A stretch of 64,000 bases of DNA from an uncultured Gemmatimonadaceae bacterium (GCA_963829055.1 CAWHHI010000003.1:320001-384000), one strand, 5' to 3'; positions 27,430 through 51,020 are shown, counted from the first letter of the stretch. The notes: generated from the sequence alone by a model not told the origin. Numbers and translations: made by a program.

Positions 27430-27957
27430 CTAGTCGGTTCGCTTGATGCGCTGGGCCGGCGCGCGGAGGAGTGACACCGCGCCGGCCCCATCCCGGACGC
27501 CGACAATGACATCCACGTCGATGCCTGGTCCCCATTTCGGGCCGTCGCGCGCGACCACGTCGAACTCCTTGGCGCCCGGCGTGCGCTGTTGTTCCTCACG
27601 CGGGACCGAGGTCCAGACGTTGTCGCCGTTGACCACCCAGAGGCCCACCACACGCGTACTCGACGGGACGCTCGCGCCATCCACGGAGCGGATGCGTACG
27701 ATACCGACGAGCGGCTTGCCGTTAGGCGGCGAGATCGGCTGAAAGTCTCGCCAGAGGTCTGCGTCGAGCGACAACGCCGTCCCGCCCACCACCACAGTCG
27801 TTGGCGCCACGCGCAGCTCGGCGGGATCTCGCGGCGCGACGGTCGACTCCGGCGTACACGCCACCGCCAGCATCACCACAGCGGTCAGCGCGCGATACCG
27901 CCATGACCACCCTGGTGCGCACCAGGGTGCGCACCCTTTCGTGTCGGCGAACGTCAT
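27430..27957 (-). CDS. Hypothetical lipoprotein
   Basis: Lipobox-like LAVAC; DLWRDFQPISPPNGKPL, ARDGPKWGPG. Confidence 0.7.
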   Translation of the reverse strand: MTFADTKGCAPWCAPGWSWRYRALTAVVMLAVACTPESTVAPRDPAELRVAPTTVVVGGTALSLDADLWRDFQPISPPNGKPLVGIVRIRSVDGASVPSSTRVVGLWVVNGDNVWTSVPREEQQRTPGAKEFDVVARDGPKWGPGIDVDVIVGVRDGAGAVSLLRAPAQRIKRTD

Positions 27958-28035
27958 CCTATCCTTGGTCTGAGACGGCACGCCGGACGAACGGTCCGGC
28001 CCAATGGATCGGCCCCTTCCAGCACAGCCAAACCC

Positions 28036-28311
28036 ATGTCCACCGACGGGCGTCACGCACCGAACAGTTCAAGGTCAGCGGCGCCAACCTCAAGGCGAAG
28101 CTGAAAGAGATCATCCGCCAGGGCAACGTTAGGCGCGTGGTGATCAAGAACGGCCAGGGTCGGACGGTGCTGGACATCCCGCTCGCCGCCGGGCATCGTG
28201 GGCGCCGCGCTGCTTCCGTTCTGGGCCGCCGTCGGCGGCATCGCCGCGCTCGCCTCGGACTTCAGCATCGAGGTCGAGCGAAACGAGCCGACCGGCATCA
28301 CGAAGAAGTAG
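28036..28311 (+). CDS. DUF4342-domain protein (frameshifted)
   Basis: EQFKVSGANLKAKLKEIIRQGNVRRVVIKN..LDIPL..GIVGAALLPFWAAVGGIAAL..IEVER. Confidence 0.8.
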
Positions 28312-28337
28312 CGCGAGCGCCGCACTGGCCGGCGCTG

Positions 28338-29171
28338 CTACCGGCCGCCGTTCAGCTCCTCGACGCGGCGCGCCAGATCGCCAAACGTGCGCAGCCGCTC
28401 GAGGTCGGTCGGGTCGAACTCGATGCGGAAGCGCTCCTCGATCGCCATCACGAGCACGACGAGATCGAGCGAGTTGACACCGAGGTCGCGAAGGGACGAC
28501 GCCTCGAGGATCGTATCGTCCGATACGCCGAGCGACTTCGCGACGAGCCGACGCACCTCGGCGATCGGAATCGGGGGTCTCGGTCGCGGTCGGATTCGCG
28601 TAACTGCGCCGCGCGGTACGAGGGGTCGAGCAGCGCTCGCGGGTTGTCGCGGTAGCGCATCGCGGCCTCGTACACGCGCTGATCGACTTCGGTGAACCGA
28701 CGCATCGTCTCGGCCACGAGCGCCGCGCCCTTCTCCGCCGCGTAACGATCGAGGCGGTCCTTCACCCAGCTGATGTGGCCGACTTCGTCCTCGATCATCC
28801 GCTGGAGCGTCTCGATCACCGCGGGATGCATGTTCGGCCACTTGAGGTGCGCGCGGAAGTGGCGGATGACGCGTCGCTCGAACACCTGCGTGAGGGTGAG
28901 GATCTCGAGGAGGCTCGTCGGCGTGCCGATCTCGGCGTAGTAGCGCGTCTGATACGTCTCGGCGACGCGACTTCGGCGTGCCGCCGACTTTCAGAATCGT
29001 CTGCGTCCACAGCCACGCGTGGTTCGCCTCTTCCGCGCAGTGCTCGGTGAGATGCACGCGCAGATCGTCGTCGTCGGTCTCGCGCGCGAGGCGACCCATG
29101 ACGAGCCCTCCCGCGAGCTCCGACTCGCGGTAGTAGCTCAGGATCCAGAGGTCGTTTTCGCTAATTTCCAC
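28338..29171 (-). CDS. Ferritin-like diiron protein probably fused to a C-terminal acyl carrier protein
   Basis: YYRESELAG, AEEANH, VFERRV, EDEVGH diiron-type motifs; C-terminal LRDLGVNSLDLVVLVMAIEERFRIEF ACP. N- and C-termini share one frame (two compensating indels). AAGGAG precedes GTG. Confidence 0.8.
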   Translation of the reverse strand: MEISENDLWILSYYRESELAGGLVMGRLARETDDDDLRVHLTEHCAEEANHAWLWTQTILKVGGTPKSRRRDVSDALLRRDRHADEPPRDPHPHAGVRATRHPPLPRAPQVAEHASRGDRDAPADDRGRSRPHQLGEGPPRSLRGGEGRGARGRDDASVHRSRSARVRGRDALPRQPASAARPLVPRGAVTRIRPRPRPPIPIAEVRRLVAKSLGVSDDTILEASSLRDLGVNSLDLVVLVMAIEERFRIEFDPTDLERLRTFGDLARRVEELNGGR

Positions 29172-29896
29172 CGGGAATGGACTCCTTGAGATGTTCGGTC
29201 GGCGCGAGCCCGCAGACGAGGCGGATCTTCCGGTTCACCGCCATGATCGCCTCGAAGTCGTTCTCCTCGGCGACCGGGACCTGCGACGACGTCACTCCCA
29301 TAGTGGCGGAATCGCTCCGCCGCCGCGAGCACCTGCGCGGCGACGTCGGGGTCGGCGGTCGATCCGCTTCTTGAGCACGTCGCCCGCGCTCGCGCTGTGG
29401 CGGAACTCGTCGCGCGACATGTAGCCTAACAGGTCACGCAGCACCGGCTCGTTCGTGCGTCGCGACATGCGCAGGAAGAAGTACGCGGCGAAGAGCTCCG
29501 AGCACATGAAGTTCGTGAGATGCGCGATGAGCTCGTCTTCGACGTATTCGATGGCGAGGGCACGCCCCCGTGCGGCGACGAGTGTCGCTCGCTGAAACTT
29601 CCTCGCGCTGGAAGCCGACGCGGTCGAGGTAGCGCGTGAGGGCCGTGAAGTGCTTGAGCCCCTCGTACAGCTCCATGCTGAGCACAGCCGTCGCATCGAT
29701 GTCATCCCACAGCAGCTGCATGAGACGCGCGGCGTACACGGGCAGATAGCCCTCGATGAGCGCCGCGTCATGCAGCGCCTGATGCAGCTCGCGCTCGGAC
29801 GCCGCGACGCGCTGGTCGATCGCGTCCCACGCGATGGTGGTGTCGAGCGGCCACGCGTTCTCTTCGGTGGCGCGGAGATGAGACTTCGTAGATCAT
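29161..29896 (-). CDS. Ferritin-like diiron protein (frameshifted)
   Basis: Reconstructed IAWDAID, AALIEGYLP, ELYEGLKH, FMCSELFAA, SRDEFRH; ATGA overlap with the upstream gene. Confidence 0.8.
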
Positions 29897-30790
29897 TGCG
29901 CACGCTCGCTGGTGTCCGGCTGACGTCGTCGTTCGATCTTGCGAGCGACGACGAGCGTCTGCAACCCGACGTCGTCCTGCCGAGTGGTGGCCTCGTGAAA
30001 GCCCGCGATGCGAAGCCAGCGCACGAGCTCGTCGCCGGACGATAGTGCGTGTGGAGCTCCGCGAGCTGTCGCATCAGGTAGTCGGCGATGCGATCGGCCT
30101 GCATGCCGGACGTGACGAACGTACCGCCGTGCCGAAGACGGTCGTGACAGTTCCTGTAGAACTGCACGAGCAGACTCGTCAGCGAGGAATTCACCGAGCC
30201 CTGTGGAGACGATGACATCCAACTCTGACGGGAAACGCCTTCAGATCGAGGGCGTCGCCGTGGGTGAACACGAAGCGATCGTCTTCGCCCGCGAGCTGAC
30301 GCGACAGCTCGAGTGGCGCTGGATCGAGGTCCACACCGAAGAATGTGCTTCGCGCGTAGACCGCGGGGAGCTCATCCTCGATCCGCTTGGCGGCCACCAC
30401 GAGATCGCGCGCAATGCCGCACGGGACCGAGAGAACGCGGAACGGCGCGGTGTCCGGACCGCGCGGATCATTGGCCTTTCGCGTGTGCACCGCACGCGCG
30501 GCGGCGACGATCTCGTGCTGCGTGTGATGGAACCGGTTTCGCATGGAGCGCGCCCCACGCATTCGAAGCAGCATCGCGTCGAGCACGCGGCCGATGCCGA
30601 AGCGCCCACTCGCTTCGTTGCGATATACGTGATCAGCGAAGCGATAGCTGCCGGAGTTCTCGATCCCTTCGCGCGCGAGGTCGCTCGTGCGCATGAGCGC
30701 GTAGATCGGGAGCAGATGCAGCTTGCCCTCGCGCAGCAGCTTTCGCGGGATCGAGTCCGAGGTGCGCGTGCGGTTGTGCAGCGGCGTCAC
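29893..30790 (-). CDS. Class I SAM-dependent methyltransferase (frameshifted)
   Basis: RVLSVPCGIARD, FGVDLD, HGDALD, DVIVSTGLGEF, LRHGGTFVT; GTGA overlap with the upstream stop. Confidence 0.8.
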
Positions 30791-32037
30791 GCACGTCGCT
30801 CCGAGCCGACGCGCGGCGTCGCGCCAGCAGGCCGCGTGGCACGCTCGTCGACGCCATGTTGCGCGAGCACGGCCAGCACCCATCGCTCGAGGCCGAACGC
30901 GACGCATCCGCTGTGCGCTGGTCCGTCGGCCGCCAGCGAGATGTCGAATCGCGTGCCGAAGAAGTCGTGATGGTGGTTGAACGACGCGGCGGCAATAGCG
31001 CGGCCAGTCGCCGTCGACGGTGAGCAGCAGCTCGTACTTGAGCGCGCCCGCCTGCTGCATCAGCCGTCGGCCTTCGTCGCCGGCGGTGAAGAACGGGTCG
31101 GTCGCTGGCTCGATCCTGCCGTCGAGGTCGAGCGTCGTCGATGAGGTCGGACGACCTGCCTGACGAGCGACTGCCTAACGTCCTCCACTTGCTCGCGGCT
31201 GCCGAGCACGATGATCTCGCGCATGGTGAAGTCCCAGAGGCGCTCGAGCGGTACGTGGTTGCCGTCCTCGAAGCGGTAGCAGTCGGCCGCGTGCGGTGAG
31301 GATGGTCGGCGTCCGAGCCGACGGTTCTTCCCTGACCATTCGGGGTAGGCGTGATAGCAGACGGCTGGGGAGAGTGCGTGGCGGGATGCCGAGTCGATCG
31401 GGTCGATCATCCCGATGCCAGACAGCAGGTCCCTCGTTCGCACGATCGACGGGCTTCGCTCGGGATGACAGACGAGCGTTAGGTGCTGTGGGAACGATGC
31501 GACCTGTCCGGCGCGCTCGAGGACGCCCAGGTCGATCAGGCTCGGGTAGCGGTGCTCCGTGGCGCCGAGTGCGCGCGCCCATTCGAGCACGCGTGTGGTC
31601 GATCGGCGCGAGGACGTCGAGCGCGAGTCCCGACAGCGAGACCTGGCCAGCTGCCGTTACGACTACGTCGCCTCGCTCCCGCAGCACGCCAAGCGGCGAC
31701 GCGAATCGTGACCGGTCGCCTCGACGCTCGAACAGCCGATCGGGCGGCGCGGCTGACGCGGCCCGACGAAGCGTCCGGGTGAAACGCCAGCCACGATCGT
31801 TGCGATCGTGCGGAAGTTCGCGAGGCTGCACCGCGCGGTCGGGAATGCGCGCGCCCAGCGACTTCTCCACCGCGGCGATGAGGTCGAGGATGCGGAGCGA
31901 GTTCATGTAGCCGTCCTCGAACAGCCGCGTGTCGCGTCCGACGTTCGCGGCGCCGCCCAGCAACGTGACGTTGATGAAGTGTGCGAGCTGACGCTCGAGC
32001 TCCTCCGGCGTCGGGAGCTGGCTTGCGATGTCGTCAT
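30787..32037 (-). CDS. ACP fused to a SerRS-like amino acid:[carrier protein] ligase (class II aaRS homologue; frameshifted)
   Basis: N-terminal LFEDGYMNSLRILDLIAAVEKSLG (ACP); SFPQHL, LSPAVCYH, CYRFE..LERLWDFTMREI, ATDPFF, LKYEL, SFNHHHDFFG, HSGCVAFGLERW. Confidence 0.85.
31406..31470. repeat. Shortened REP-like element inside the ligase CDS
   Basis: Minus strand TGTCATCCCGAGCGAAGC..CGAGGGACC..CGGGATGA, read in frame as CHPERSPSIVRTRDLLSGIGM. Confidence 0.7.
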
Positions 32038-33146
32038 GCCGCCGCCCCCCAGTTGGTCGCGATGCACCAGCGCACGACGGCGTCGTAGTAGTCGAGAACA
32101 TGCGGCGCCTCAATGCCGGCAGGCGCGAGCACCGCGCTCGCGTGACGGGCGTCGAAGATCTTCGGGTATGCCAGCTGGTACGCGAACGCCTGCACGGCGC
32201 GCGTCGCCTGCAGCAGCACCTCGTTGCCCGCTTCCTCCACCGTGCGGACGAACAGCTCGTACGTCGTCGAGGTCCACGATCGCCGGCCGCGCGATGCTCC
32301 GCTTGCGCCACGCAGGGCGGTGCCGCTCGAACGCCGCCGTGGTCGCATCGAGCAGTGCACCTAACGTGGCAGAGTTCGCCTGCGCCCGCGCACAGATGGT
32401 ACGTGGCGCCGGCGCTGAACGCGTGCTCGAACAGGTGATGAGACGCGTCCGCCGCGAAGTCGACAGGAATGAGGTCCACGAGCGCCGACTCCTGTCCTGG
32501 AACCATGGGCGCCAGGCCCTGGTACAGCAGGCGCAGCGCGTGGTGGACGGCGTTGAAACCGCTGACCGCGCCAGAGCGCGAGTCTCCGATGATGGTGCTC
32601 AGGCGGTACAGCGCGATCGGCAGATCGCGCCATCGCGTCGCGCACCACCGCTTCCATCTCCGCCTTGGACTGCTCGTAGCTGTTGACGAACCCATCCTGC
32701 GCCGCCGATGTCGCCCTCGCCGAAGCATCCCGTCGCTGCGCCCGGCAACGTAGACGGTGCTGAAGCACGCGATGCGCTCGAGGTTCGGGCACTCCTCGGC
32801 GAAGGCGAGGAGCGCGCGCGTGCCCTCGACGTTCGTCGCGCGCGCGTCGGGCAGCGGCCGGTTGAACATCGTGTCCGCGGCGCAGTGGACGATGTCGGTG
32901 ACACTCCCGCGAAGCGCCGCACGGTCGCCGGGAGCAATGCCTAACGTCGGACCCGCACGCAGATCGCCGGTCAGCGTGCTCACGCCTGGGCAGCGTTGCG
33001 CCGGCGCGGACGTCGAGATGCCGCGCGTCAGCACGACGACCGATGCGTCACCGGCGCTCGCGAAGCGGCGCGACGAGATCGCGACCTAACGTGCCGGTGC
33101 CGCCGGTCACGAGGATGGTACGTGGCTGATGCCGCGTCAGCGCCAT
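32034..33146 (-). CDS. Thioester-reductase-like extended SDR (NAD_binding_4 type; frameshifted)
   Basis: ILVTGGTGTLG, IVHCAA, NVEGT, FSTVYVAG, NSYEQSK (YxxxK), RLSTIIGDSRSG, DLIPVDF. Confidence 0.88.
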
Positions 33147-33159
33147 GACGCAACCACGG

Positions 33160-34130
33160 TCAGTGCTCGACGACCATGCAGCTCCAGTTCAGTCCGTAGC
33201 CGAACGTGAACAGGAGCAGCAGATCGCCTTTGCGCAGGAGCCCGGCGTCGGTCGCATCGCGCAGGTTGATGAAGTTGTCCGCCGCGATCGTGTGACCGAC
33301 CCGCCCGATGTTCGCGCTGAACAGCTTCTCGCGCGGACAGCCGATGAGGCCGAGCAGGATCTCCCAGCTGCGGAGCGAGACGTTATGCGGGATCACCCAC
33401 GCGATGTCATCGAGTGTCACGCCGGCCTTCCGGAGCGTCGTCTCGATCACCGTGCGGGCCGTGGGGAAGTACGCGGCGATGATCTCGTTCTCGAGCGAGC
33501 CGGAATCCCAGAACGCGCCCTTCGTCACCTGGTGCGTGGCGACGATGCGATTCCGCCCGGCTCTCGGCGCAGCAGCATTGCGCACGCGCCGTCGGACACG
33601 AGGTTGTAGACGACCTCGCGTGAGGCGTCGTGCGGCAGACGATCGGCGCTCACGCACAGCACGGTGCGCACGTCGGGCTCCGCGAGGAGCGTGGCGCGCG
33701 CGAGGCGGATGGCCGAGAAGATGGCGGCGCACCCTTGCTGGTCGATCCCGGCGACGGAGGCGCTCGTGAGATCGAACTCGCTCTGCAGCCGCGACACGGG
33801 ATACTTGAAGAAGTCCATGAACTCGCGCATGTGCAGCACGGAACCCGCGGGGCGGGCCGCGGTTTCCATGGTGGAGCTCGAGGTCAGTGCGCCCGCGTAG
33901 AGCACGAGGTCGATCTCGTCAGGCGACGTGCCCGTTTCTTCGAGCAGCGCGCGGACTGCGTGCATGGCCATGTCCACGTGACTGTCCGCTTCGGCCACGC
34001 GCGCCTGGCGGAAGCCGAAGCTCGCGAGCGCCGCCGCACCGCGGAGCGCACCGCGCTGTTCCAGCTCCGCGAGTGTCGGCGACGACGCCGGGAGCCAGTA
34101 CGTCAGCGCATCGATACCGACATCGGTCAC
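33160..34130 (-). CDS. KAS III (FabH)-like condensing enzyme / acyltransferase (frameshift near 33555)
   Basis: QQGCAAIFSAIRLA (catalytic Cys), VSDGACA, VIPHN, RVGHTIAAD, FTFGYGLNW. Alternative start at 34220. Confidence 0.88.
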
Positions 34131-34260
34131 ACCAGCTCTCGCTTGGGCCAAAAGGTTCGCGTAAGGTAGTAGCCGCATCGGCGAATTGGCGATAATGTCC
34201 GGCGCGAGCGACGCATCCACTATACGTCATCACACGTAGCAGAAATTTTCGGAGGGTTCG

Positions 34261-34695
34261 ATGGCCCGGGTAGCCAAGTCTGCTGTCATCAACGGCAACG
34301 CCGATCAGATCATCAACTACATCGCCGATGTGAAGAATCACCCCGCGTTCATCGGTCCGCTCAAGTCGATCGCGAACGTGAACGGCGATCCGAAGAAGTC
34401 CGGCACGTCGTGGGATTGGACGTTCGTCATGGCGGGCGTGGAGTTTTCAGGCCGCGCCGAGACGGTGGGCTTCGAGGCGGGCAAGACGTTCAGCTACAAA
34501 ACGACAACCGGCGTCGAGAGCACGTGGACGTACAGCGTCGAGCCGCAGGGCGGTGGGTCGAAGGTGACGGTGGACGTGTCGTACGAAGTACCGAAAACGC
34601 TGTTGTCGAAGATGCAGGCCGGTGTGGTCGAGAAGCTCAACGACGCCGAGGGGCTGCGCGCGGTGGAGAACCTGAAGGCGATTCTCGACCAGTAG
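34261..34695 (+). CDS. SRPBCC / polyketide cyclase-dehydrase family protein
   Basis: MARVAKSAVING..IINYIADVKNHPAF..TWTYSVEPQGGGSKVTVDVSYE..VENLKAILD; GGAGG RBS. Confidence 0.85.
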   Translation: MARVAKSAVINGNADQIINYIADVKNHPAFIGPLKSIANVNGDPKKSGTSWDWTFVMAGVEFSGRAETVGFEAGKTFSYKTTTGVESTWTYSVEPQGGGSKVTVDVSYEVPKTLLSKMQAGVVEKLNDAEGLRAVENLKAILDQ

Positions 34696-34717
34696 ACTCC
34701 ACCAGTAGGCGAGAGTC

Positions 34718-35224
34718 GTGCTTGCCTGGGCGGCCGCGTACGTCGCGCTCGTGATCGTCGCGGCGGCGGTCGTCCTCGCTCGGCGCGAGCCGACGATCGT
34801 ACGCGGCGACTGGGTCTTTCTCCTCACATCGCTGTTCGTCCTCCTGGTGGCAATGGTCAGCGCGCTGCGCGGTAATCGCTTTTCGTTAGGCATGCTGCTC
34901 GCGACCATCGTCGTGCTGCTGGCGGGGTGGTTCGTACAGTCGCGCTGGTGGGTGATCGGCGCGCCGCCCGACGCCGTCACGACGACGATCGAGGAATGCG
35001 CGGCCCGACTCTGCGCGCCATCGGTGCGAGCGGCCGGTGCGTGTACCGTGACTGTGCCCGGCGGCGCCGTTCGGCTCCGCGTTGCGCCAGTCGGAGGCTC
35101 GACGGTGATCCAGTTCGTGGCGAGCAGCAGGCACAGGAAGGCGCATCTCTTCCGCCGGCTGCTGGCGAAACAGTATCGACCGGTGATGCCGACGCTGCGC
35201 GTCGGCGGGTCGAGCCATGGCTGA
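34718..35224 (+). CDS. Hypothetical membrane protein
   Basis: Three N-terminal hydrophobic helices; closely spaced between SRPBCC and hydrolase genes. Confidence 0.65.
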   Translation: MLAWAAAYVALVIVAAAVVLARREPTIVRGDWVFLLTSLFVLLVAMVSALRGNRFSLGMLLATIVVLLAGWFVQSRWWVIGAPPDAVTTTIEECAARLCAPSVRAAGACTVTVPGGAVRLRVAPVGGSTVIQFVASSRHRKAHLFRRLLAKQYRPVMPTLRVGGSSHG

Positions 35225-35229
35225 CGACC

Positions 35230-36085
35230 ATGGCTGACGCGCGACGGCGCTGGATTCGGCTCGGCGTGCTGGTGGCGGTGCTCGCCATCGTCTTCGCCGG
35301 CATCCGCCGCCTCGCCTTCCTGGCGGTCGAGCGAGGCGGGATCGTCACCACGCCTAACGGGCCGGAGACGCCGGCGACGTTCGGCGCGCCGTTCACGCGA
35401 GTGGCGATCACGAGCGGCGACCGGATGCTCGACGCGACGCTCGTCCGTGCTGCGGGCGACTCCAGCCCGGCGCTGTTGATCTTTCACGGGACGGGCGAGG
35501 CCGTGTCGTTCTGGGCGGATACGCAGGCGCTGCTCTATCGCCACGGCGTCACGTCGATGGTCTTCGACTACTCCGGGTTTGGCCGCAGCACGGGCCGGCC
35601 CGACGGTGGCGCACCTCGAGGAAGACGCCGACGCCGCCTACGCCGAGTTCGTGCGGCAGGTCGGGCGACGGACGCGACCGTACGTGCTGGGGTACTCGTT
35701 AGGTACCGGCGTCGTGTTCGACGCCGTCGCTCGCTGGACGCCGCAACCCGCCGGCGTGGTCTTCGTTGCGTCGTACTCCTCGGCCCGCGAGGGCGCGGTC
35801 GCGTTCGGGCTCGTGCCGCACTGGGCGACGTTCCTCTTGCCCGACCTCTGGAACAACGTGCGCGACGCGCGGAACCTGCGTCAGCCGCTGCTGGTCATGC
35901 AGAGCGACGCCGACCAGCTCTTTCCGGTGAGCATGGCGAAGGCCGTCTACGACGCGGCGACGGTGCCCAAGCAGATGGTCGTGGTGCACGGCTATCGACA
36001 CGAGGACGGCCACCAGCGTCCGACCGACGACTACTGGGCGCCGGTCATTCGCTTTCTGACGACCGGCGTGCACTCAGGGGAGTGA
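35230..36085 (+). CDS. Alpha/beta hydrolase, membrane-anchored (frameshift near 35600)
   Basis: LIFHGTGE, FDYSGFGRS, GYSLG nucleophile elbow, SDADQL, GYRH. Confidence 0.85.
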
Positions 36086-36624: not shown

Positions 36625-38586
36625 TTATCGGCCCCAGCGGTTGTTGGTCCGATCGATGTCCGGGAACGCGTTCTCTGGGTCGATCTCCACTTTCGTGATC
36701 TTCGGCGACGCCGCCACACGCAGCGTCGCGCGACGCTCGCCACGCAGCCACACGTCGACCGGAATTTCCCGCCGCTCCACGCGTGTCACGCCCTGACGGG
36801 TGATCGCCAGCCTAACGGGCATCGGGGCGAGGCCGCGATCCTCGACGGTGATCGTCGCGCTGTCGCCGCTCGACTGAACGTCCGTGATCGCCTGGTCGAG
36901 CGTCCACGTCTCGTAGAACCACGTGCGCCAGAACCACGACAGGTCGCGGCCACTCACGTCGTCGAACGTGTGGAAGAAGTCGTACGCCGTCGGATGCTTG
37001 CTTGATCCAGCGACGTCCGTACTCGCGGTACGCCTTCATGAACACGTCGTCCCCGAGCAGCGCGCGGAGCGCGACCATGTTCGTCGCCATCTTCTGGTAG
37101 CTCGCCACGCTGTACGCCGGCGTCCCCACGGGGTACAGATCGCCGTGACGCATGAGCTCCACCTCGTCGCCGCGTGCGCGCGAACCCGAGGTACGCGTCG
37201 CGCACGATGCGCTCGAGGTCGTAGCCGCCGAAGAACGAGCGCATCGCCTGCGCCTGATTGAAGCGCGTGAGCCCCTCGTCCTGCCAGGCGTGGCGCTTCT
37301 CGTCGGAGCCCACCTGCATCGGGAACCACATGTGCCCGAACTCGTGCACCGTCACCGAGTAGAGCGCCAGCGTGTCGCGCTGGCCACCGATGCACGTGAT
37401 CATCGGGTACTCCATCCCGCTGCACGACACGACGCCGTCGAGCGCCGTCATCTGCGGGTACGGGATACGGCCAGAGGAATCCCGACAGGAACTCGATGGC
37501 GTGCTGTGCATAACGCGCGGACTGGTCCCACGCCCACGCCACGCGCGACGGACGATAGAACGAGTTGATCGTCGCCGTGTCCCCGAACGCCGCCTGCGTC
37601 GCATCCCACAGGTACTTGTCCGACGTGCCCCACGCGAAGTCGCGCACGTTTCGGGCCTCGAACAGCCACGTGACCTTGCCGCCCGCGCCGAGCGTCGTCG
37701 ACTTGCCCGCACCGCGATCGCCTTCCGCGACGACATGCACGACCTCCGGCGAACGACGCGCTTCGGCGAGCCGCTCGCGCGTCGCGGGCGTCAACACCTC
37801 GTTCGCGTTCTTCAGCTTCGCCCGTCGCGCCGATGAGCCATCCGGCGGGAACGGTCAGCGCGACGTCGTAGTCCGCCCAGCCCATGTAGAACTCGGCGTT
37901 CCCCATGTACCGGTCGGTCTGCCAGCCGTTCACGTCGTCGTACACGGCGATCTGCGGATACCAGTACGAGATCATGAACACTTCACCGTCGGTGCCGGAG
38001 CGCGGTGCGCCGTCTGGCGGGATCGTGAACTTCCACGAGAACTCGAACTCCGCCGCGCCACCCGGGGCGAGCGGCAGTCGGCAGCTTGATCCATGCGATC
38101 GTGCCCTCGATCTGGAATCCCGCCTGCACGCTGGCGTCGACGTCGCGGAGCTGCGGCAGCGGGCGCCCCTGCGCCACCACGCGCGACAGCTCCATGCCAT
38201 TCGTCGGCGGCACCTCGACGTTCCGCGCCGCGCCCGGCGCGAACAGGTTCTGGTACAGGTGAACGGCAATGAGTCGGAGCGTGTCGGGCGACCGGTTCTG
38301 GTACCGCGATGCGCCCCTCGCCCGTTAGGCGCTTCGTCGCCGGGTCGAGCTCGGCCCGCAGCGCATAACGCGCGTACTGCGTCCAGTACTTCGGCCCCGG
38401 CTCACCCGTCCGCGTCCGCGTACCGCGCTCGACCGCGCGCCGGAACGCCGCCGTCTCGAACACCGGGTACGGAATGGGACGTCGCCCTGCGGCATCGCCC
38501 GGGTGTCCGCCGACAGGAGCTGGCGTTGGCCGGCGCGTGCCAGACGAGCACGCGAGCACCGTGGCGGACACGACCACGGCGATCAT
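36625..38586 (-). CDS. M1-family zinc aminopeptidase (frameshifted)
   Basis: ISYWYPQIAVYDD, NVRDFAW, SGMEYP, HEFGH..WQDEGLT, SGRDLSWFWRTW. Confidence 0.9.
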
Positions 38587-38718
38587 AACGCGCGGCACAC
38601 GGCAGAGCTGGGCAGATGCGCGGGTGCAGCGGCTGTAGTCGTCATGACGCTCGGTCGGAGTTGACCCGGCGCGCATGCAGGCGGGCCAGAGGCCCGGGCA
38701 CCGGCAATCTACCGCCGG

Positions 38719-39897
38719 CTACCGTTTGCGGTACGTCACGCGGTCCCCGGTTCGGCTGTCGGTCAGGACGAGCGCATCCGCGCTCAACGATCCGCGTGCA
38801 TTCGTAGTCGTCGATTGGCCCGATCCGCTGGTGTCGAGGAAGTCGAGCCCGACAGCGTTCCCGTTGATCGAGCCGAACGCCTGCATGTTCCGCCCAGTCG
38901 ATGAGCGCCCGGATCCCGATACGGGGACGTCACCGGCGAACGTCGGCCCGGGGAAGAACGGCGACGAGTAGAGCGTCATCGTAAGCGGGCAGCGTCGACG
39001 AATTCCTGTCGCCGGTCCACGAGCCTTCGATCGGGGTGTCCACGTTCGCCGTGAGGTCGAGTGTCTTGGACATGATCGTCGCGACCGCGCCGAACAGGCC
39101 GACACCGCCCGTGAGCGTGTTGCCGCGCGTGTCATCGCCGAACGGATCGAAGCCGGCGACGTAGTAGTGGAAGTAGTTCGAGTCCACCGCGATGACGGCG
39201 AAGCTCTGCGGCACTCCGGGGAACATCGTACTCGCGCGCGAACGAGAATGACCACTCCGCGTCGTCGGGGTTTCCGGCGGCGCGCGCGAGGGGGAGGATG
39301 AGCTCCCGGTCGAGTGACACCGTGAACTGCTGGCGCCCGGTCCCGCTCCCCTCGTGCCGAAGCACGTAGCCGGCCGCGTTGCGGACCCCGGCGAGATTGA
39401 TGCGCAGCGTATCACGGTCCACGTTGAACGTGCGCCGCGCCGCGTCGACCGCTCCGCCCACCGGCACCGTCGTCTCACCGAGCACGACGCCGAGCGACGT
39501 CTCGATCCGCAACGTGTAGCGTTCGCCGGGCCGCACCCGGAGTACGTTAGGCGGCGCCGTCCCGGGCGAGCCGTTGGTGATGGTGACGCTCGTGACGCTG
39601 ATACACGCCGTCGTTCGCCACGCTCGGCACCGCGATGACCGAGTCCTGCCGCGGCCCGTAGATGACGACGCGCGCGTTCGTGATCGGCTCCCGCCCCGTC
39701 GGTGTGCCGGCCGCCGTCACGACCGAGCGCAGCGTGCGCTCGACGATGACGATCTGCTGCGTGGCCGTCGCGTTGAGCACCGCGTGCACGACCGCGCGCG
39801 GCTCGACGTCCGGCGCCGTCGTGTCCGCCAGCTCGCAGCCGGTCGCGAACGCGATGACGAGCGCGGCGCCACCCACGGTGGTCACGTTCCGGCGCAT
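38719..39897 (-). CDS. DUF4249-like lipoprotein (frameshifted)
   Basis: Lipobox ATGC; VVHAVLN..QIVIVERT, PGERYTLRI, GGVGLFGA; directly downstream of a TonB-dependent receptor. Confidence 0.7.
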
Positions 39898-39899
39898 CG

Positions 39900-42280
39900 T
39901 CACCACTCCACCCGCATGCCGAACGACGGCAGGAACGGGAACTGCGACGCACCCTTCACGACCGGCGGGTCGACATTCGTCTCGAGCGTGTACAGGAACA
40001 CGTTCTTCCGGTTGAAGACGTTCACGACGTTGATGTACGGTCTCAGCGTCGCGCCTCCGACGTCGAACCGCCGCTCGGCGCTCAGGTCCAGGCGCCAGTA
40101 GAATGGAAATCGTTCCGTGTTTCGTCGCGCTGCGCACCATCTTCCTCGCCGTCGCTGCGCGGTCCGCCCCACGTGTTGCGGACGGGATCGTAGCGGTACC
40201 GGTTCATCACGCCGGCCCAGCCCGTGTACGGCGTCCCGGTGGCGACGCCGAGGTGGGTGCCTAACGCCCACCGGCTCTGCGGCCGCGCCTAGGCGGCGAC
40301 GACGTTCGCGTTATGCCGCCGGTCGTGCGCCGGCCAGTACGCCACATCGTCCCGCTCGCGCGTCGTCACGCCGTAGCTGTACGCGATCCAGCCGCTGAAG
40401 CCGTTGCGCTCGAGCTGCCGGAGGTAGACGTCCACGCCGTACGACCGGCCGTCGTAGTACCTGAGCAGCGACGGCCGGATGCGCGGGTCGACGGTGCTCG
40501 CCGGCTCCGAGAGGTTGTCGTACGTCTTGCCGTACGCCTCGACACGAAAGAAGCGCGAGCCCGACAGCCACCGCTCCGCTCCGAGTACCACCTGGTCCGA
40601 CGTCGATACCGGAATCGTCTTGTCGCTGCCTAACCAGAGATCGAACACACGGAGCGGCAGATCCTCGTTGCGCATGGCGCGCATCCACTGCGTGTAGCGG
40701 CCGCCGGCCGCCGTGATCGCCAGCTGCGGTGTCACGAAGTACTTCACCGACACACGTGGCGAGACGCCGAGCCAGTTCGCGCCGCCCACGTATTCACCGC
40801 GCAATCCGCCGCGCAGCGAGCCAGCGGTCGTTCGGCTTCCACACGTCTTCCGCGAACAGCGCGCCCATCGCCGGACGCTGGCGCATCGTCGTGTCGCCAT
40901 CGGTGGCGAGCGGGTCGGGGAACCCGATGTCGTCATTGTTGTCGCTCGTCACGGTCAGCTGCTCGCGATACGACGTGCGGTACGCGGACGCCTCGTACCC
41001 GGCGCTCAGCGTCTGATGATCGCGCGCGTGCGTGATCGAGCCCGCGAGCTGCACCTCGCTCACGCTCTGCGCGAGGTAGATCGTCTCGCCCGGCAGTCGA
41101 AGTGCGTGGCGAAGCGCGTGAACGCGAGCCGCTGCGACATCGTCGTGCGCGCGCCGAGCGGCTGATCCCACGTTAGGCCGACGACGCGATTGCCCCAGTC
41201 GAACGTGATCGTCTCGTCATCGTCGTCCACCGGGTCGAACGGCCCGCCGGGAATCGTGACCCTGCGGCGTCGACTCATCGATGTGGTAGAGCAGATCCTT
41301 CCCCGTGTATGCCGTCAGGCCGAGCGCGCCACCAGCGGGCAGCCGGAGCCGCGCGCGGAGCTGCGCGTCCTGGAAGTGATACGGAAAGTCGTTGTTCCCA
41401 CGAATCCACTCGATCGACCCTGTCGGCGTACGTGCGCCGCACGGCGACGTTCCACGACAGCTTGCCCTCGACCCGTCGCACCGCCCATGAACAGCGAGGA
41501 CGACAGGAGCGAGACCTCCGCGGTGCCGTGCGCGCCGTTCCGCGTCTCCTCGAGGCTCTTCACGTCGAGCACGCTCGAGAGTCGGCCGCCATAACGCGAC
41601 GGGAACGCGCCGGTGAGCACGTCCACGCCGCTCACGGCCTTGTCGATGAACGTCCCGAACAGACCGCCCAGATGGAACGGGTTGTAGATGGGGATGCCGT
41701 CGAGCAACACGAGGTTCTGATCCGCCTCGCCGCCGCGCACGTTGAAGCCGGCCGAGAAATCGTTGCGCGCGACGACGCCTGGCAGGAGCGCGACGGAACG
41801 GAGGACGTCGGCCTCGCCGATCGCCGGAACACGACGCACCTCCGCCCCGGAGATGCTCACGACACTCGGCGTCGCCTCCTCCTCGAACCGCACCCGCTCC
41901 GGCGATTTCGCCACCGTGCGCACGGGCGCGAGCGACTGGGGCAGCATGCGGACGCGGAGCGTGACGGTCACCGTGTCGTTCGAGCGAACGACGACGGCCG
42001 TGTCGACCGACTCGTAGCCCAGGAAGGTGGCGTGCAACTGGACGCGCCCCGCCGGCAGATCGGGAAACACGAAGTGGCCCGCGGAGTCAGCGCGCACGGC
42101 GCGGCGCGGGCGATCGATCCTGACAGTGGCGCGAATCGGAACGCCGGTCGCGACGTCCGTGATCGAGCCCATGAGCGCTCCGGTGGGCGCGGCCGCCTGA
42201 CGCGCGGCCGCGGGCTGCTGTGCAGCCGCGCCCGAAGCGGTAACAACGGCTATGACGAGCGCGACCGGAAATCGGTGCAT
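39900..42280 (-). CDS. TonB-dependent receptor (frameshifted)
   Basis: GEADVLRSVALLPGV, VRGGEADQNLVLLDGIPIYNPFHLGG, YGGRLSSV, SPRVSVKY, HDRRH, PFLPSFGMRVEW. Confidence 0.9.
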
Positions 42281-42427
42281 GCGATGGACGCAGTGGGCGG
42301 CGGAGCGCGAGTCCTACCCGACGTACAACCCTTTGATCCGTCGATGCCCTTATGTACTTCCGCGAGGCGTGTGCGGCACGTGGTCACGTAATGCGGGCGT
42401 GATCTCGTCGGCTGTACATTCTTCCAC

Positions 42428-43117
42428 ATGTTCATCGGCCACTATGGCGTCGCCCTCGCCGCCAAGCGCGTGGCGCCACGTGTGTCGCTCGGGGTGCTCG
42501 TCGCAGCCGCGCAGCTCGCGGACCTCGTCTGGCCCATCCTGCTCATCCTCGGGGTCGAGCGCATCCGCATCACACCGAGCGACAATCCGTTTCTCGGCAT
42601 CACGTTCGAGTCGTATCCGTGGACGCACAGCCTTCTGGCCGCCATCGTCTGGGGCGCGCTCGCCGGCCTCGGCTACGCGGCGCTCCGGGGACGGCGCGCC
42701 GACGGCGTGGTCGTCGGTCTCGTGGTCGTGAGCCACTGGGTGCTCGACTGGATCACGCACGTGCCGGACCTGCCGCTGTATCCGGGCGGCGCCTCGCGTC
42801 GGGCTCGGGCTCTGGCGGTACCCCTCGGCCACCATGGTCGTCGAGGCGCTCGTGTTCCTGCTCGGTCTCGCTCTCTATTGGCGCTTTACCCGCCCGGTGG
42901 ACCGGACGGGAAGGTGGGCGTTGTGGGCGTTCGTCATCGTTGCTCGTCGTCCTGACCCTTGCGAAGCATCTACAGTCCTCCGCCCACGAGCGCGAACGCG
43001 ATCGGCTGGGCGGCGTTAGGCGGCTGGCTCATCCCCGTGTTCGGCTGGTGGGTGGATCGACACCGACAGCCGGTATCTTCGTCGCCCCTGGCCCCGCACC
43101 TCTCGTTGCACACATGA
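42428..43117 (+). CDS. Membrane-bound metal-dependent hydrolase-like protein (frameshifted)
   Basis: MFIGHY, QLADLVW, YPWTHSL, SHWVLDWITHVPDL. Confidence 0.8.
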
Positions 43118-43195: not shown

Positions 43196-44407
43196 GTGAC
43201 GCGCCGCGACTCGCTCTCGCTCGGCGAAGCACGGCGTATCGCGCTCGCCGCGCAGGGCTTCGACCGCCCTCGGCCGACCGGTGCGGTGAACGCGGGACAT
43301 CTGCGTCGCCTGCTCCGCCAGATCGGGCTGCTGCAGATCGATTCCGTGAGCATACTGCTGCCGGCGCACTATCAGGTCCCGTTCTCGCGACTGGGTCCGT
43401 ACGACCGCGCGCGACTGGACGCGCTCATCTACAAGGAGCGCGAGTTCACGGAGCAGTGGGCGCACGAGGCGTGCATCCTTCCGGTCGAGCACTGGCCGCT
43501 CATCCGCCATCACCTCGGGCCGCACGAACGACGGTGGGGCGCGCTGGCGAAGTTCATGGAAGCGAACGCCAGCTACGCCGCGCGCGTGCTCGAGGAGGTG
43601 CGCGCGCGTGGACCAGTGGTCGCCGGCGACATCGATGAGCCGGATGGGACGCGCGGCCGCGGCGGCGGCTGGTGGGGATGGACCACGGCCAAGACGACCC
43701 TCGAAGGTCACTTCGCTCGCGGGGCCGTCGCGATCGCCGAGCGGCGGACCGCGGGGTTCGCGCGCGCGTACGACCTGGCCGAGCGCGTCGTGCCTAACGA
43801 GCATCACACGCGCGTGATGTCGCGTGAGGACGCCCAGCGCGAGCTGATCCGCCTCGCCAGCCGAGCGACCGGCATCGCGACCGCGAGTGATCTCGCCGAC
43901 TACTATCGTATGGCGCCGCGTGAAGCGCGGCAGCGCGCGGCAGAGCTGGCGTCGGCCGGCGAGTTACGCGAGGTGCGCGTGGATGGCTGGCGCGAGCCGG
44001 CGTACCTGCATCCGGACGCGCGGATTCCTCGCGCGATTGCCGCCGCCGCGCTGCTGTCGCCGTTCGACCCGGTGATCTGGTACCGTCCGCGCGCGGAGCG
44101 GCTGTTCGAGTTCGACTACCGCATCGAGATGTATGTCCCGCGCGAGAAACGGAAATACGGCTACTATGTGCTGCCCTTTCTTCTGGGCGACCGCATCGTG
44201 GCTCGTGTGGATCTCAAGGCGGATCGGGCGGAGGGATGCCTGCGCGTTCTGGGTGCCTACGTCGAGGCGCACGCGGACGCGGACGACGTGGCCGGCCCGC
44301 TGGCCAACGAGCTGCGGACGATGGCTCGTTGGCTCGCGCTGGACGATGTGTCGGTCGCGCGACGCGGTCCGTTGAGCCGAGCCCTCGGGTCCGCTATTCG
44401 AAGCTAG
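43196..44407 (+). CDS. ycaQ: YcaQ-family (HTH_42) interstrand-crosslink DNA glycosylase
   Basis: EARRIALAAQG, LLQIDSV (QxD), EQWAHEAC, LLSPFDP, FDYRIEMYVP..RKYGYYVLPFL. Confidence 0.9.
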   Translation: MTRRDSLSLGEARRIALAAQGFDRPRPTGAVNAGHLRRLLRQIGLLQIDSVSILLPAHYQVPFSRLGPYDRARLDALIYKEREFTEQWAHEACILPVEHWPLIRHHLGPHERRWGALAKFMEANASYAARVLEEVRARGPVVAGDIDEPDGTRGRGGGWWGWTTAKTTLEGHFARGAVAIAERRTAGFARAYDLAERVVPNEHHTRVMSREDAQRELIRLASRATGIATASDLADYYRMAPREARQRAAELASAGELREVRVDGWREPAYLHPDARIPRAIAAAALLSPFDPVIWYRPRAERLFEFDYRIEMYVPREKRKYGYYVLPFLLGDRIVARVDLKADRAEGCLRVLGAYVEAHADADDVAGPLANELRTMARWLALDDVSVARRGPLSRALGSAIRS

Positions 44408-45357: not shown

Positions 45358-46826
45358 TCAGTCACTCGCCGCCTGCTCTGCCAGCTTCTCGATCGCGTCC
45401 GGCCCCGTCGCCCATCGCGCCAGACTCGGCAACGCGCGCAGCAGCGCTTCGCTGGAGAAGAACCGGCACCGCTTCTCGAGCCCGAGCGCGCGGAAGGTCG
45501 GTCGCGCGAGCTCGCGTCCGACCTTCGCCAGTCGCGCCGCGGGCGCGACAATGTAGAGCGGGAAGTTGAGGTTCGGCGAGAGCGCCGCGAGATCAGCCAT
45601 CCGCAGGAGTCCCGAGTACACCGACGTCGTGTGCTCCACCTCGAACGCCGCCGCCACCTGGTTCGAGCCGCTCAGCCACACGACGTCGATCAGCGAGACG
45701 AGCCGCTGCGAATCGGGCGACATCCCGAGCGGCGGCAGGCGCGGCACGCTGAGCGCACCGAGCGGCTCGCCTCCCCACTCGCGTCGTCGGTCGTTCGCGG
45801 CGATCCAGACGCGGCAGCCGAGGTGCTGGCCGACCTTCGCGAGCAGCCACTGGACGTGCGTATGGTCGAGCGGCGGCGGTTCGGTGAAGGGGACGTACGG
45901 CGGCGACGTCTCGCGCACCGCCGAGCGTACCCCCGAATGCACTCCCGTGCGCGCGGGGCGCGCCTGCCGGTCGACCAGCGTTAGGCTCGGCGTTTCGCGG
46001 ACCGGCTGGCGGGCTCGACGTCGCGCTCGGGGCGACACGCTCTCGTCGTACGGGAGCGGCTCGTCGCCCAAGGTCGGCAGCCGCTGGGCGTGCCACCAGC
46101 AAAGGTGCTCCAACTGCCAGACCGTGAGCGAGAGCGCCGCGGCGAGCGACAGGAACGACTCGCGGAACAGGAAGTAGTCGCGCATCGGGTCGCCGCTCGC
46201 CGTGAACAGCTCCTCTTCCTCGTGCAGCACCACGCGCGCGGACGGCTGGAAGCCCGGCCACTGATCCGGTTCCTGCAGATGCCAGCACATCGTGGCGAGG
46301 AAGACCGCGTGCGTGGGCTGCGCGACGGTCGGCTCGATGGTCGGCTCGACTGGCGTCCGGTCGGCCTGCGCTTTCACGCCGTCTCGAGCGCGAGCGACGG
46401 CGGCGCCACGTACGCGACAAGCTCGGCGAGCTGGACCGCCGCGGCCTCGATCCCGTCGGGAGCGCGGAACGCCGCGCGCAGACGCCGCGCAAGCTTCACC
46501 GGATGCTCAGTGTGCTTGACGAGCGCGTTCAGGTACATCGCGCCGGATGCTCCCTTGAGCGCGAACGCGTCCCAATCGGTGCGGGTACGCCGGTCGAACG
46601 TCGAGCGGAACTGCTCGAGCCCGACGTCGCCCGCGAGAAAGCGCCTGAGCCAGGCGAGCATCTGCGGCCGCACCTGTGCGCGACCCCGCTCCCAGGCCTC
46701 GTACTCCGCTCGCGCCGATGGGTCGGCGGACCATTCCTCGCGCAGGAGCCGCCACGACTCGGTCTCGAGGTCGGTGCGCGGACGCGGCACCGCGACGTAC
46801 GCGGCTCGCGTTGACTGTACTACCAC
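45358..46826 (-). CDS. Protein with C-terminal PD-(D/E)XK restriction-endonuclease-like domain (one gene with a frameshift near 46375, or two coupled genes)
   Basis: HTHVQWLL..VWIAANDR..IDVVW..AAFEVEHTTSVYSGLLRMADL..LYIVAP..LARPTF. Confidence 0.7.
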
Positions 46827-47013
46827 AGCAAACTGCCCCGCTGAGTGTCGATGAGTGTCCAGCCCCAAGTCTAGAGGGCGGACACGCCGCGGGCGAGTGC
46901 GAGAGCGCATGGTCTGGCACATCGCGTCTCACGGCGCAATGCTATAGCGGATCGCTTTTCAGCCAGAATAGCGTCGTCACCCCGCGCACCCTTCCTCGCG
47001 CCCCGCCCCGCCT

Positions 47014-50000: not shown

Positions 50001-50498
50001 TACATCGTCGACATCCTCGGCCGCGACTACGACGGGTACTTCAACAACCCGGCCGGTAACCGCGTGCCGTTCACGAGCCCCGCGTCAGGCATCTGGGGCC
50101 CGAAGGTGATGATCATCAATGAGATGGCCGGCTCCGGCGGCGATCTCATGCCCTACATGTTCAAGCACCGGAAGATCGGCCCGCTCGTCGGGAAGCGCAC
50201 GTGGGGCGGACTCGTCGCCACGAGTGACACGCCGCCGTTCGTGGATGGCGGATCGATGATCGCGCCGCGGTTCGGCTTCTTCGCCCGTGACAACAAGTGG
50301 GCGGTGGAGAACGAAGGCGTCGCGCCCGACGTGGACGTGGAGAACTGGCCGAAGGACGTCATAGCCGGCCACGATCCGCAGCTCGAGCGCGCGGTGCAGG
50401 AAGCGCTGAAGCTGCTCGCGGCGAACCCGGGCAATCGACTGATGCAGGAACCGCCCCCGCCGATGTGGGGCAAGCGCGTGAAGCCGCTCGATCGTTAG
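47014..50498 (+). CDS. Tricorn protease homologue, S41 family (frameshift near 48790)
   Basis: PD40-like repeats (LSPDGKW, WSPDGR), PDZ-like segment, IIDERYNGGG, EMAGSGGD, GKRTWGG, ENEGVAPD, DPQLERAV. Confidence 0.93.
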
Positions 50499-50639
50499 GC
50501 ACTCGGCAGCGCTGCACGGCAGGAGTTCGAGGGGCTGGGCGCCAGGAGTTGGGCGTCCAGCCCCTCGTGCATCGCGGGCCTACTGGCCTGCCCGCACCGG
50601 CGCCGAATGGCCTTGCGCGCCGCCCTGCACCGTTCTACC

Positions 50640-50666
50640 GTGTCCCATAGTCTTGCCAAGGGACAC
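50640..50666. promoter_or_regulatory. Candidate PadR operator
   Basis: GTGTCCC-N13-GGGACAC ending 2 bp before the padR ATG. Confidence 0.55.
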
Positions 50667-50668
50667 GC

Positions 50669-51013: not shown

Positions 51014-51020
51014 CAAGGTC

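Follow-up and report, generated by a model that had tools for sequence, protein, structure and literature searches.

Amino acid:carrier-protein ligases have been shown to load carrier proteins in vitro. Those of Bradyrhizobium (Bll0957 and Bll6282) and Agrobacterium (Atu2573), with structures 3mey and 4h2s-4h2y, have a class II core resembling that of seryl-tRNA synthetase (SerRS), and the cellular or biological role of these rhizobial enzymes is, to our knowledge, still open. Here we describe a gene cluster that encodes a ligase with this SerRS-like core, found in a 64,000-nt stretch of DNA (hereafter the window) from an uncultured Gemmatimonadaceae bacterium (GCA_963829055.1, CAWHHI010000003.1:320001-384000). 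The cluster ligase shares with the Bll0957 type the conserved Cys/Glu/Cys positions of the zinc site and the residues of motifs 2 and 3, and the tRNA-binding arm is absent from both. It differs from the Bll0957 type in having a carrier fused at its N-terminus (in the clusters called type 1 below), in the divergence of the N-terminal half of its catalytic domain, and in its placement in a conserved operon with a beta-ketoacyl synthase III (KAS III)-like enzyme, a reductase, and diiron enzymes.

The pvf/ham genes offer a second comparison. In the parts of the pvf/ham source drawn on here, the AurF-like diiron N-oxygenase of the ham operon works on valine tethered to a nonribosomal peptide synthetase (NRPS), and the proteins PvfB/HamC, PvfC/HamD, and PvfD/HamE have in common with what we predict for the present cluster an amino acid tethered to a carrier, an oxygenase of the ferritin-like diiron type, and release by reduction (PMC11659414). 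Both sets of genes also include a protein of the "polyketide cyclase/dehydrase" type, a likeness drawn from the description in the same source and not from the Pvf/Ham sequences. Loading is different: as far as described there, pvf/ham loads via the adenylation domain of an NRPS-like protein with A-T-R architecture, whereas the cluster divides the function among an aminoacyl-tRNA synthetase (aaRS)-like ligase, an acyl carrier protein (ACP), and a stand-alone reductase. Beyond the pvf/ham genes described in those parts, the cluster encodes the KAS III and a methyltransferase as well as a further carrier and a further diiron protein. Pfam and NCBIfam detected neither an adenylation nor an NRPS domain in any of the cluster proteins.

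The coding signal of the cluster, as seen from stop-to-stop open reading frames (ORFs) and a frame track of third-codon-position GC content (GC3), spans minus-strand positions 28338 to roughly 34130. It covers six genes, which in the order of transcription encode a KAS III-like condensing enzyme with a Cys-His-His triad (33160-34130), a stand-alone thioester reductase of the NAD_binding_4 short-chain dehydrogenase/reductase type (32034-33146), a fusion of a first carrier, ACP1, with a SerRS-like amino acid:[carrier protein] ligase (30787-32037), a class I S-adenosylmethionine-dependent methyltransferase of the Methyltransf_20 family (29893-30790), a 243-aa ferritin-like diiron protein (DI1; 29161-29896), and a second ferritin-like diiron protein of about 190 aa with a C-terminal acyl carrier domain (DI2-ACP2; 28338-29171). 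The stop codon of the KAS III gene (TGA, 33160-33162) is separated by 13 nt from the ATG of the reductase (33146-33144). The reductase and ligase genes meet in an ATGA at 32034-32037, the next two junctions are a GTGA at 30787-30790 and an ATGA at 29893-29896, all three read directly in the sequence, and the stop codon of DI1 (TAG, 29161-29163) lies inside the start of DI2 (GTG, 29171-29169) in an 11-bp overlap (29161-29171). An earlier note, made from the sequence of this stretch alone, had described a compact six-gene operon here. The six minus-strand genes, their order, and all of the junctions and overlaps that it gave are confirmed by direct reading, but not one of the six genes is a single open frame throughout in the window, since frame shifts cut each of them, a flaw at which that note had hinted by advising that the indels be polished. 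Among 30 translated pieces of the window, Pfam matches were obtained for ACP_syn_III_C (74.1 bits), ACP_syn_III (27.2 bits), NAD_binding_4 (89.8 bits), Methyltransf_20 (26.5 bits), PP-binding (51.6 bits), and, on the plus strand, Polyketide_cyc2 (47 bits) and alpha/beta-hydrolase families.

The cluster is conserved well beyond this genome. In a DNA search of 41 genomes (the window's own and 40 relatives), 22 match, and the region is present in all six other genomes of the genus at 76-81% identity, where the six genes are intact ORFs. The order KAS III, reductase, ACP1-ligase, methyltransferase, DI1, DI2-ACP2 (type 1) is the same in 16 other loci and is rearranged in one further locus (G014). 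Because the same six genes stand in the same order in so many loci, we judge this arrangement to be far beyond chance. Eight loci bear a five-gene core (type 2) composed of KAS III, reductase, ACP plus ligase, DI1, and DI2, which lacks both ACP2 and the Methyltransf_20 gene. One of these is a paralogous cluster in the window's own genome (G000:C20:130492-132978, locus L016), the proteins of which are 37-54% identical to those of the type 1 cluster. Conserved co-occurrence of these genes in other genomes, on which the earlier note had made its proposal depend, is thus evident in 16 loci of the same order, one rearranged locus, and eight type 2 loci.

The two carriers are distributed differently between the cluster types. 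In type 1 the ligase carries ACP1 as a fused domain, whereas in type 2 ACP1 has an ORF of its own beside the ligase gene; most type 1 loci encode DI2 and ACP2 as one protein. In the G014 variant (L018:9573-11571), DI2 comes right after the reductase, ACP2 is a separate protein of 84 aa, and an extra gene of the acyl-CoA dehydrogenase family is inserted next to ACP2. Through these fusions and fissions, each carrier is connected with its enzyme, ACP1 with the ligase and ACP2 with DI2. Within the fetched loci, no type 2 cluster has a second carrier, which would agree with delivery of the extender on the housekeeping ACP.

Across the phylum, 301 genomes were sampled, among them that of the window; 22 of these, from 16 of 128 genera, have a ligase match at E <= 1e-20. 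Of 20 ligase neighborhoods fetched, seven contain a type 1 or type 2 cluster (L021, L032, L033, L034, L036, L037, and L039), and the remaining 13 have the ligase match alone. A search for related loci with a single DI1 protein yielded 18 loci, all from Gemmatimonadota/Gemmatimonadaceae metagenome-assembled genomes. Outside the phylum there are leads only, namely a metagenome contig of 45.6% GC and a DI1 homolog in the cultured myxobacterium Archangium gephyra (WP_047860898.1, P0397; the representative of its 90%-identity cluster, P0254, is 38% identical to DI1). The contig (L069:1-2680) bears in a row a KAS III-like gene, a stand-alone ACP, a DI1 homolog of 42% identity, and, directly after DI1, a flavin monooxygenase (Pyr_redox_3) with a partial match to Lys/Orn N-hydroxylases; its KAS III-like gene reads PNN, and not PHN, at the first His.

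The assignment of the genes rests on intact orthologs, chiefly those of locus L002, and the identities given in the earlier note (KAS III-like enzyme, reductase, ACP-ligase, methyltransferase, and two diiron proteins) are supported by them. The ligase of L002 has 397 aa, with an N-terminal PP-binding domain (21 bits) and a class II core that scores 37 bits against tRNA-synt_2b (cut-off 29.3) and aligns with Bll0957 (3mey) over residues 196-389 at E 4.4e-32. The Ser48 of the ACP, Cys204, the motif-2 Arg231, and Cys353 are invariant in 18 of 18 ligase sequences, and Glu359 and Arg360 are conserved in all 18 as well, so that a class II aaRS core with the motif 2 Arg and motif 3 is present. At position 233 of the zinc site, 15 sequences have Glu and three have Asp, the positions being taken from the 3mey alignment. 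We take the corresponding Cys/Glu/Cys to be the zinc ligands in Bll0957 and to be a feature of the methanogen-type SerRS lineage. Against the family model of amino acid:[carrier protein] ligases, NF005479, the protein scores 173 bits (cut-off 357) and covers only profile positions 128-315 of 318, and it is best called a putative divergent relative of these ligases. The carrier with its invariant Ser48, fused or adjacent, lends indirect support to the prediction that the enzyme, in an ATP-dependent reaction, aminoacylates a phosphopantetheinylated carrier and not a tRNA.

Ligase homologs are also present on plasmids and chromids (110 records). The other cluster genes were not found beside the ligase homologs in the two Streptomyces loci checked. 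In one Streptomyces plasmid (NZ_CP108735.1; L071:6029-10898), a ligase homolog annotated as "hypothetical protein" lies inside a cluster of NRPS and polyketide synthase (PKS) genes, flanked by a 3-hydroxyacyl-CoA dehydrogenase, a PP-binding protein, an acyl-CoA dehydrogenase, and an acyltransferase. This layout is reminiscent of aminomalonyl-ACP extender-unit cassettes, with an aaRS-like ligase in place of the adenylation enzyme.

The KAS III-like enzyme (324 aa in L002) matches both Pfam domains of KAS III above their cut-offs (ACP_syn_III, 24.5 bits; ACP_syn_III_C, 73 bits). In alignment with FabH (2ebd), the catalytic Cys and the first His coincide, whereas the Asn of FabH is replaced by His; this Cys-His-His triad is invariant in 23 of 23 orthologs and paralogs, none of which has the Cys-His-Asn of FabH. 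All NCBIfam FabH models score far below their cut-offs. A His as third residue is found in the decarboxylating KAS I and KAS II enzymes, and the known acyltransferases of KAS III type carry Asp or Asn at this position. FabH-type enzymes start from an acyl-CoA, whereas the starter of the cluster enzyme is probably a carrier-bound aminoacyl group. The reductase (369 aa in L002) passes the Pfam threshold of NAD_binding_4 with 142.4 bits and falls below the cut-off of TIGR01746 (99.5 bits vs 213), and its nearest solved structure is the reductase domain of MxaA (4u7w, E 3.8e-21). It has in common with the MxaA-type terminal thioester reductases the NAD_binding_4 fold and the TGxxGxxG and YxxxK motifs: all 24 sequences have Tyr157 and Lys161, and 23 have Thr15, Gly16, and Gly19, the 24th being gapped there. 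The MxaA type is the last domain of an NRPS or PKS, whereas the cluster reductase is a stand-alone protein. The methyltransferase scores 38.9 bits against Methyltransf_20 in an intact ortholog; no characterized close relative was found, and ESM Atlas gave only generic Methyltransf_20 clusters.

For DI1, no Pfam family reaches its threshold, FA_desaturase_2 (PF03405) scoring 16 bits (threshold 22.7). The same model matches 24 of 42 aligned family members at E <= 0.01 (best 1.4e-16). The family is small, with 180 representatives at E <= 0.001 among 1.84 billion, and DI1 had no match in the plasmid collection. The AF2 model of DI1 (pLDDT 93.6) finds R2-like ligand-binding oxidases (R2lox), R2, and stearoyl-ACP desaturase as top Foldseek matches (7qbk, 6qrz, 1syy, and 1oq9; TMq 0.56-0.64), and residues E48, E75, E78, H82, E133, E163, and H166 are invariant in 27 of 27 sequences. 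Among the relatives of the DI1 family are the soluble acyl-ACP desaturases and R2lox, with which DI1 has in common a ferritin-like dimetal fold and a full set of Glu/His ligands. DI1 is distinguished from the desaturase and R2 structures by low identity (14-17%, E 7e-4 or weaker), by its length of only 243 aa, and by a first metal motif of the form E-x3-H (E78...H82) and not E-x2-H.

Intact DI2-ACP2 matches PP-binding (52.4 bits) and Ferritin (25.9 bits), and AurF (PF11583) at 22.8 bits (E 6.1e-5), below the gathering score of 29.6. Residues E18, E47/E48, H51, E98, E129, and H132 are invariant in 22 of 22 DI2 sequences, and the Ser of ACP2 in 16 of 16. The ligand pattern is E, ExxH, E, ExxH, with H44, H104, and H108 as extra invariant residues; this ligand set is generic to ferritin-like enzymes and not specific to AurF. 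The top structural matches of DI2 resemble aldehyde-deformylating oxygenase (ADO), with 5ux2_B at Z 17.1 (rmsd 3.1 over 172 residues) followed by 8fhc_B and 5uwz_A. These ADO-like matches span Z 15.7-17.1, which is a modest excess over a helical-bundle background of about 14, and DI2 has no match to Pfam Ald_deCOase (PF11266). Both DI2 and the ADO-like proteins are compact ferritin-like diiron bundles of about 180 aa, and they differ in sequence (13-16% identity) and in the fusion of DI2 to a carrier; ADO is not known to be fused to an ACP. With the whole DI2-ACP model, Foldseek matched only ACP chains, and ESM Atlas returned only generic ferritin-like clusters for the diiron query. ACP2 itself resembles the ACPs of fatty-acid synthases. 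In a profile-profile comparison, DI1 and DI2 match weakly (probability 42.5%, E 2.6e-4), and for this reason they are treated as two separate families. A complex prediction with DI1 and residues 1-190 of DI2 scored 0.00 against a mark of 0.32, which counts neither for nor against a heterodimer.

Because none of the six genes is open in the window, it has to be asked whether the cluster is a pseudogene cluster that has genuinely decayed in this strain or whether the assembly is at fault. All six genes are broken, with at least two frame shifts in DI2-ACP2, four single-base insertions in DI1, three frame-shifting indels in the methyltransferase gene, about 10 in the ligase gene, six single-base insertions in the reductase gene, and one single-base deletion in the KAS III gene. 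An in-register reading of the window along the alignment has no stops in five of the genes and one in the sixth, that of the ligase, which could be due to misalignment or to real damage. Decay would also agree with the absence from the window of a phosphopantetheinyl transferase (PPTase) gene that some relatives have in the cluster, and the intact-looking paralogous cluster in the genome could compensate for the loss. The kind of change is unlike that of decay, however. In an alignment of the window with five relatives of the same genus over 28300-34260, there are 32 window-specific indels, 29 of them not a multiple of three; the single-base changes comprise 22 insertions and two deletions, none of them in a homopolymer run. 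The selective constraint is unchanged, dN/dS of the in-register genes against L002 being 0.10-0.25, compared with 0.09-0.29 between intact relatives.

Similar damage is found in unrelated neighbors and throughout the genome. Among the syntenic blocks next to the cluster, 15 window-specific single-base insertions are located in 37592-43065 and none in 43201-44367, 45376-50493, or 50634-52805, so the damage is patchy and not specific to the operon. In relatives, the first of these blocks encodes an M1 peptidase and a protein resembling TonB-dependent receptors. In the window's genome, rpoB (G000:C19:47991-52509) is split between two frames near 51345, which must be an assembly error because rpoB is essential. 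A frame-switch map (a GC3-based Viterbi count of same-strand switches per 10 kb, which is a composition proxy and not a gene-by-gene count) gave a genome-wide median of 10 per 10 kb; 99 of the 771 bins, spread over all large contigs, reach at least 20, and those of the window score 26, 32, 12, 27, 12, 9, and 5. Dense patches of up to 38 switches per 10 kb were seen at window positions 1-43000 (G000:C3, about 200-365 kb) and on all large contigs, and, where checked, they come from single-base insertions. Gene calls within such patches of this assembly are unreliable.

Parts of the stretch are present in 20 sequencing-run rows from 14 studies, and contigs of four runs from four studies of other metagenomes, about 96-97% identical to the window, could be compared with it. 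Inside the cluster their length falls short of the window's (2120 nt vs 2140 over 29239-31378, with 26 gaps; 1423 nt vs 1432 over 31799-33230, with 11 gaps), and elsewhere the lengths are equal, for example 1189 nt over 33991-35179 with no gaps. All 12 of the indel rows displayed, out of 117, are letters left out with respect to the window. The earlier note had named frame shifts confirmed by reads, as signs of a decayed operon, as an outcome that would speak against it; this did not occur, as the independent contigs are without the frame-shifting bases. The frame breaks in the window look like assembly artifacts and not like gene decay: the excess of single-base insertions, the unchanged constraint, and the genome-wide patches fit an assembly error and do not fit decay. 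Real and recent decay in this strain, judged here with the source reads unseen, appears very improbable to us. Since its frames are damaged by assembly errors, the window copy is unsuited to synthesis or expression, and intact orthologs such as locus L002 are preferable.

What might these six proteins make? The operon is real and conserved in uncultured Gemmatimonadaceae of soil, and we consider the chances evenly balanced that it builds a small nitrogen-containing metabolite on carriers without NRPS or PKS modules, according to the following general scheme. The SerRS-like ligase would adenylate a small amino acid and load it in cis onto the phosphopantetheine of its own N-terminal ACP1, a step proposed because of the homology to Bll0957 and the fusion with ACP1. 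The Cys-His-His KAS III would then use the aminoacyl group as starter for a decarboxylative condensation with a malonyl unit, carried by ACP2 or, where a cluster has no ACP2, by the housekeeping ACP; the product would be a carrier-bound gamma-amino-beta-ketoacyl thioester. Both ferritin-like diiron enzymes could oxidize this carrier-bound intermediate, DI2 acting on its fused ACP; the NAD_binding_4 reductase would release the thioester as an aldehyde or alcohol, possibly with cyclization, and the methyltransferase would cap the product. More speculatively, an SRPBCC protein and a small membrane protein encoded next to the cluster may bind, cyclize, or export it. The malonyl extension in particular is put forward only tentatively, and we would sooner expect it to be wrong than right. 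Several points weigh against the scheme: all of its chemical steps, substrate and product included, are deduced from sequence; the ligase scores below its NF005479 cut-off and matches the profile in its C-terminal half alone; enzymes of KAS III type can also be acyltransferases, so that the Cys-His-His triad is only suggestive; the best structural neighbors of DI2, the ADO-like proteins, act on free aldehydes and not on carrier-bound substrates; and the ligase gene of the window retains its stop.

The same genes could be read as a route to an amino lipid, as the earlier note had proposed. The KAS III would then serve as an acyltransferase that N-acylates aminoacyl-ACP1 with a fatty acyl group from ACP2 or the housekeeping ACP; the desaturase-like diiron enzymes would tailor the chain beforehand, and the reductase would release an N-acyl amino aldehyde or alcohol, to be methylated afterward. 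The FA_desaturase_2 matches within the DI1 family (24 of 42 members) and the stearoyl-ACP desaturases among its fold matches agree with such a route, as do the likeness of ACP2 to fatty-acid-synthase carriers and its fusion to DI2, the lipid-binding fold of the SRPBCC protein and the membrane protein as conserved neighbors, and the acyl-CoA dehydrogenase added in G014. A third triad residue that is His in 23 of 23 enzymes, as in the decarboxylating enzymes, argues for condensation instead, type 2 clusters have no second carrier, and DI1 with its 243 aa is short for a desaturase model of 325 positions and scores below the family cut-off. We think the amino-lipid route unlikely, and malonyl extension is at least as likely, because of the invariant Cys-His-His triad and the type 2 clusters with one dedicated carrier.

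A pvf/ham-like route without NRPS would lead elsewhere: diiron N-oxygenation of the carrier-bound amino acid and its reductive release as an N-hydroxy amino aldehyde, giving N-oxide or diazeniumdiolate-type signals, with KAS III and methyltransferase for further elaboration. In favor of this route, there are a ligase for carrier loading, a thioester reductase, an SRPBCC protein, and a diiron protein that matches AurF weakly (E 6.1e-5), and on the variant contig of low GC the flavin monooxygenase with its partial Lys/Orn N-hydroxylase match comes right after DI1. Yet the AurF match stays below the gathering score (22.8 vs 29.6 bits) in a protein of only about 190 aa, neither a haem-oxygenase-like nor a cupin partner turned up, and KAS III and the second carrier are without counterpart among the ham genes as far as the parts of the source drawn on here describe them (PMC11659414), so this route seems improbable. 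Finally, the combination of reductase and deformylase known from cyanobacterial alkane synthesis could apply, in which case the reductase would make an aldehyde, from which DI2 would strip one carbon as formate and leave a shortened amine or hydrocarbon. The best structural matches of DI2 do have aldehyde-deformylating oxidase activity (5ux2_B, Z 17.1) and a thioester reductase is in the same operon; a Z of 17 exceeds the background of helical bundles (about 14) by a modest margin only, however, Ald_deCOase is unmatched, and the fusion of DI2 to an ACP argues for a substrate that is carrier-bound and not free. We give this last route hardly any weight.

Next to the cluster, beyond a divergent intergenic region (34131-34260), lies a plus-strand unit that the earlier note had also pointed out and that is present at 34261-36085. 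It consists of an SRPBCC (Polyketide_cyc2) protein (34261-34695; 47 bits), a small membrane protein (34718-35224) without any Pfam family match, and an alpha/beta hydrolase recognized by Pfam (35230-36085), which is frame-shifted in the window. The SRPBCC gene is a conserved neighbor of the type 1 cluster. It is found beside the cluster in 14 loci (13 of type 1 and the type 2 locus L037), in four of which it is on the same strand, upstream of KAS III. The gene for the small membrane protein, searched with tblastn, is conserved in 11 of 15 loci tested and accompanies the SRPBCC gene, and the alpha/beta hydrolase was found among the same number of loci only in two of the same genus. A gene for an Sfp-type PPTase lies between SRPBCC and KAS III in several relatives of the genus (G001, G002, G005, G006, and L067; L002:668-1495) and is absent from this position in the window, G003, and G004; two genes of the ACPS family are located elsewhere in the window's genome. 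An ICMT-family membrane methyltransferase, which follows DI2 in one type 2 locus (L037:7627-8292, G069) that keeps the SRPBCC gene, was considered as a core member and dropped; an ICMT-like gene is missing from the other six cluster-bearing type 2 loci that were searched for it (L016, L017, L019, L033, L034, and L036). At the other end, a terminator-like hairpin lies on the minus strand just 3' of the last gene (28310-28326), which is weak evidence because the consensus scan gave four sites where shuffled sequence led one to expect 2.6. A sigma-70-like promoter was sought in 27800-34800 and not found, and no Rfam family reaches its gathering score anywhere in the window.

No characterized pathway with this gene set was found in the literature searched (open-licence papers and preprints) or in the plasmid collection, and among the papers listed for biosynthetic gene clusters of Gemmatimonadota, no title or opening of an abstract names the combination. 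This agrees with the earlier note, which had not recognized the combination as a characterized pathway; no characterized syntenic match turned up in these sources. Every part belongs to or resembles a known superfamily, and several miss the thresholds or defining features, namely the KAS III triad, the NF005479 cut-off, and the cut-offs of AurF and FA_desaturase_2. The cluster represents carrier-protein-dependent biosynthesis of a small molecule, with loading here predicted to be by an aaRS-like ligase. It is possible, though we hold it with less than even confidence, that the cluster is an assembly line without NRPS or PKS that derives from a tRNA synthetase and is known so far almost exclusively from uncultured Gemmatimonadaceae, in which a self-loading ACP-ligase feeds a Cys-His-His KAS III and two undescribed families of diiron oxidases act on carrier-bound intermediates. 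Its product would then belong to a new class of small metabolites, N-heterocyclic or N-oxygenated, and such ligases would have their first physiological role.

In this operon an amino acid:carrier-protein ligase has constant partners, which accompany it in many genomes and in two paralogous versions. Fusion and fission tie each carrier to its enzyme, and the question of what these ligases do becomes directly testable with six or seven proteins. The cluster also brings to light two small diiron families without a characterized member and a clade of KAS III enzymes whose triad is unusual. Although abundant in soil, Gemmatimonadaceae have seldom been cultured, and a defined metabolite of any kind from them would be new ground.

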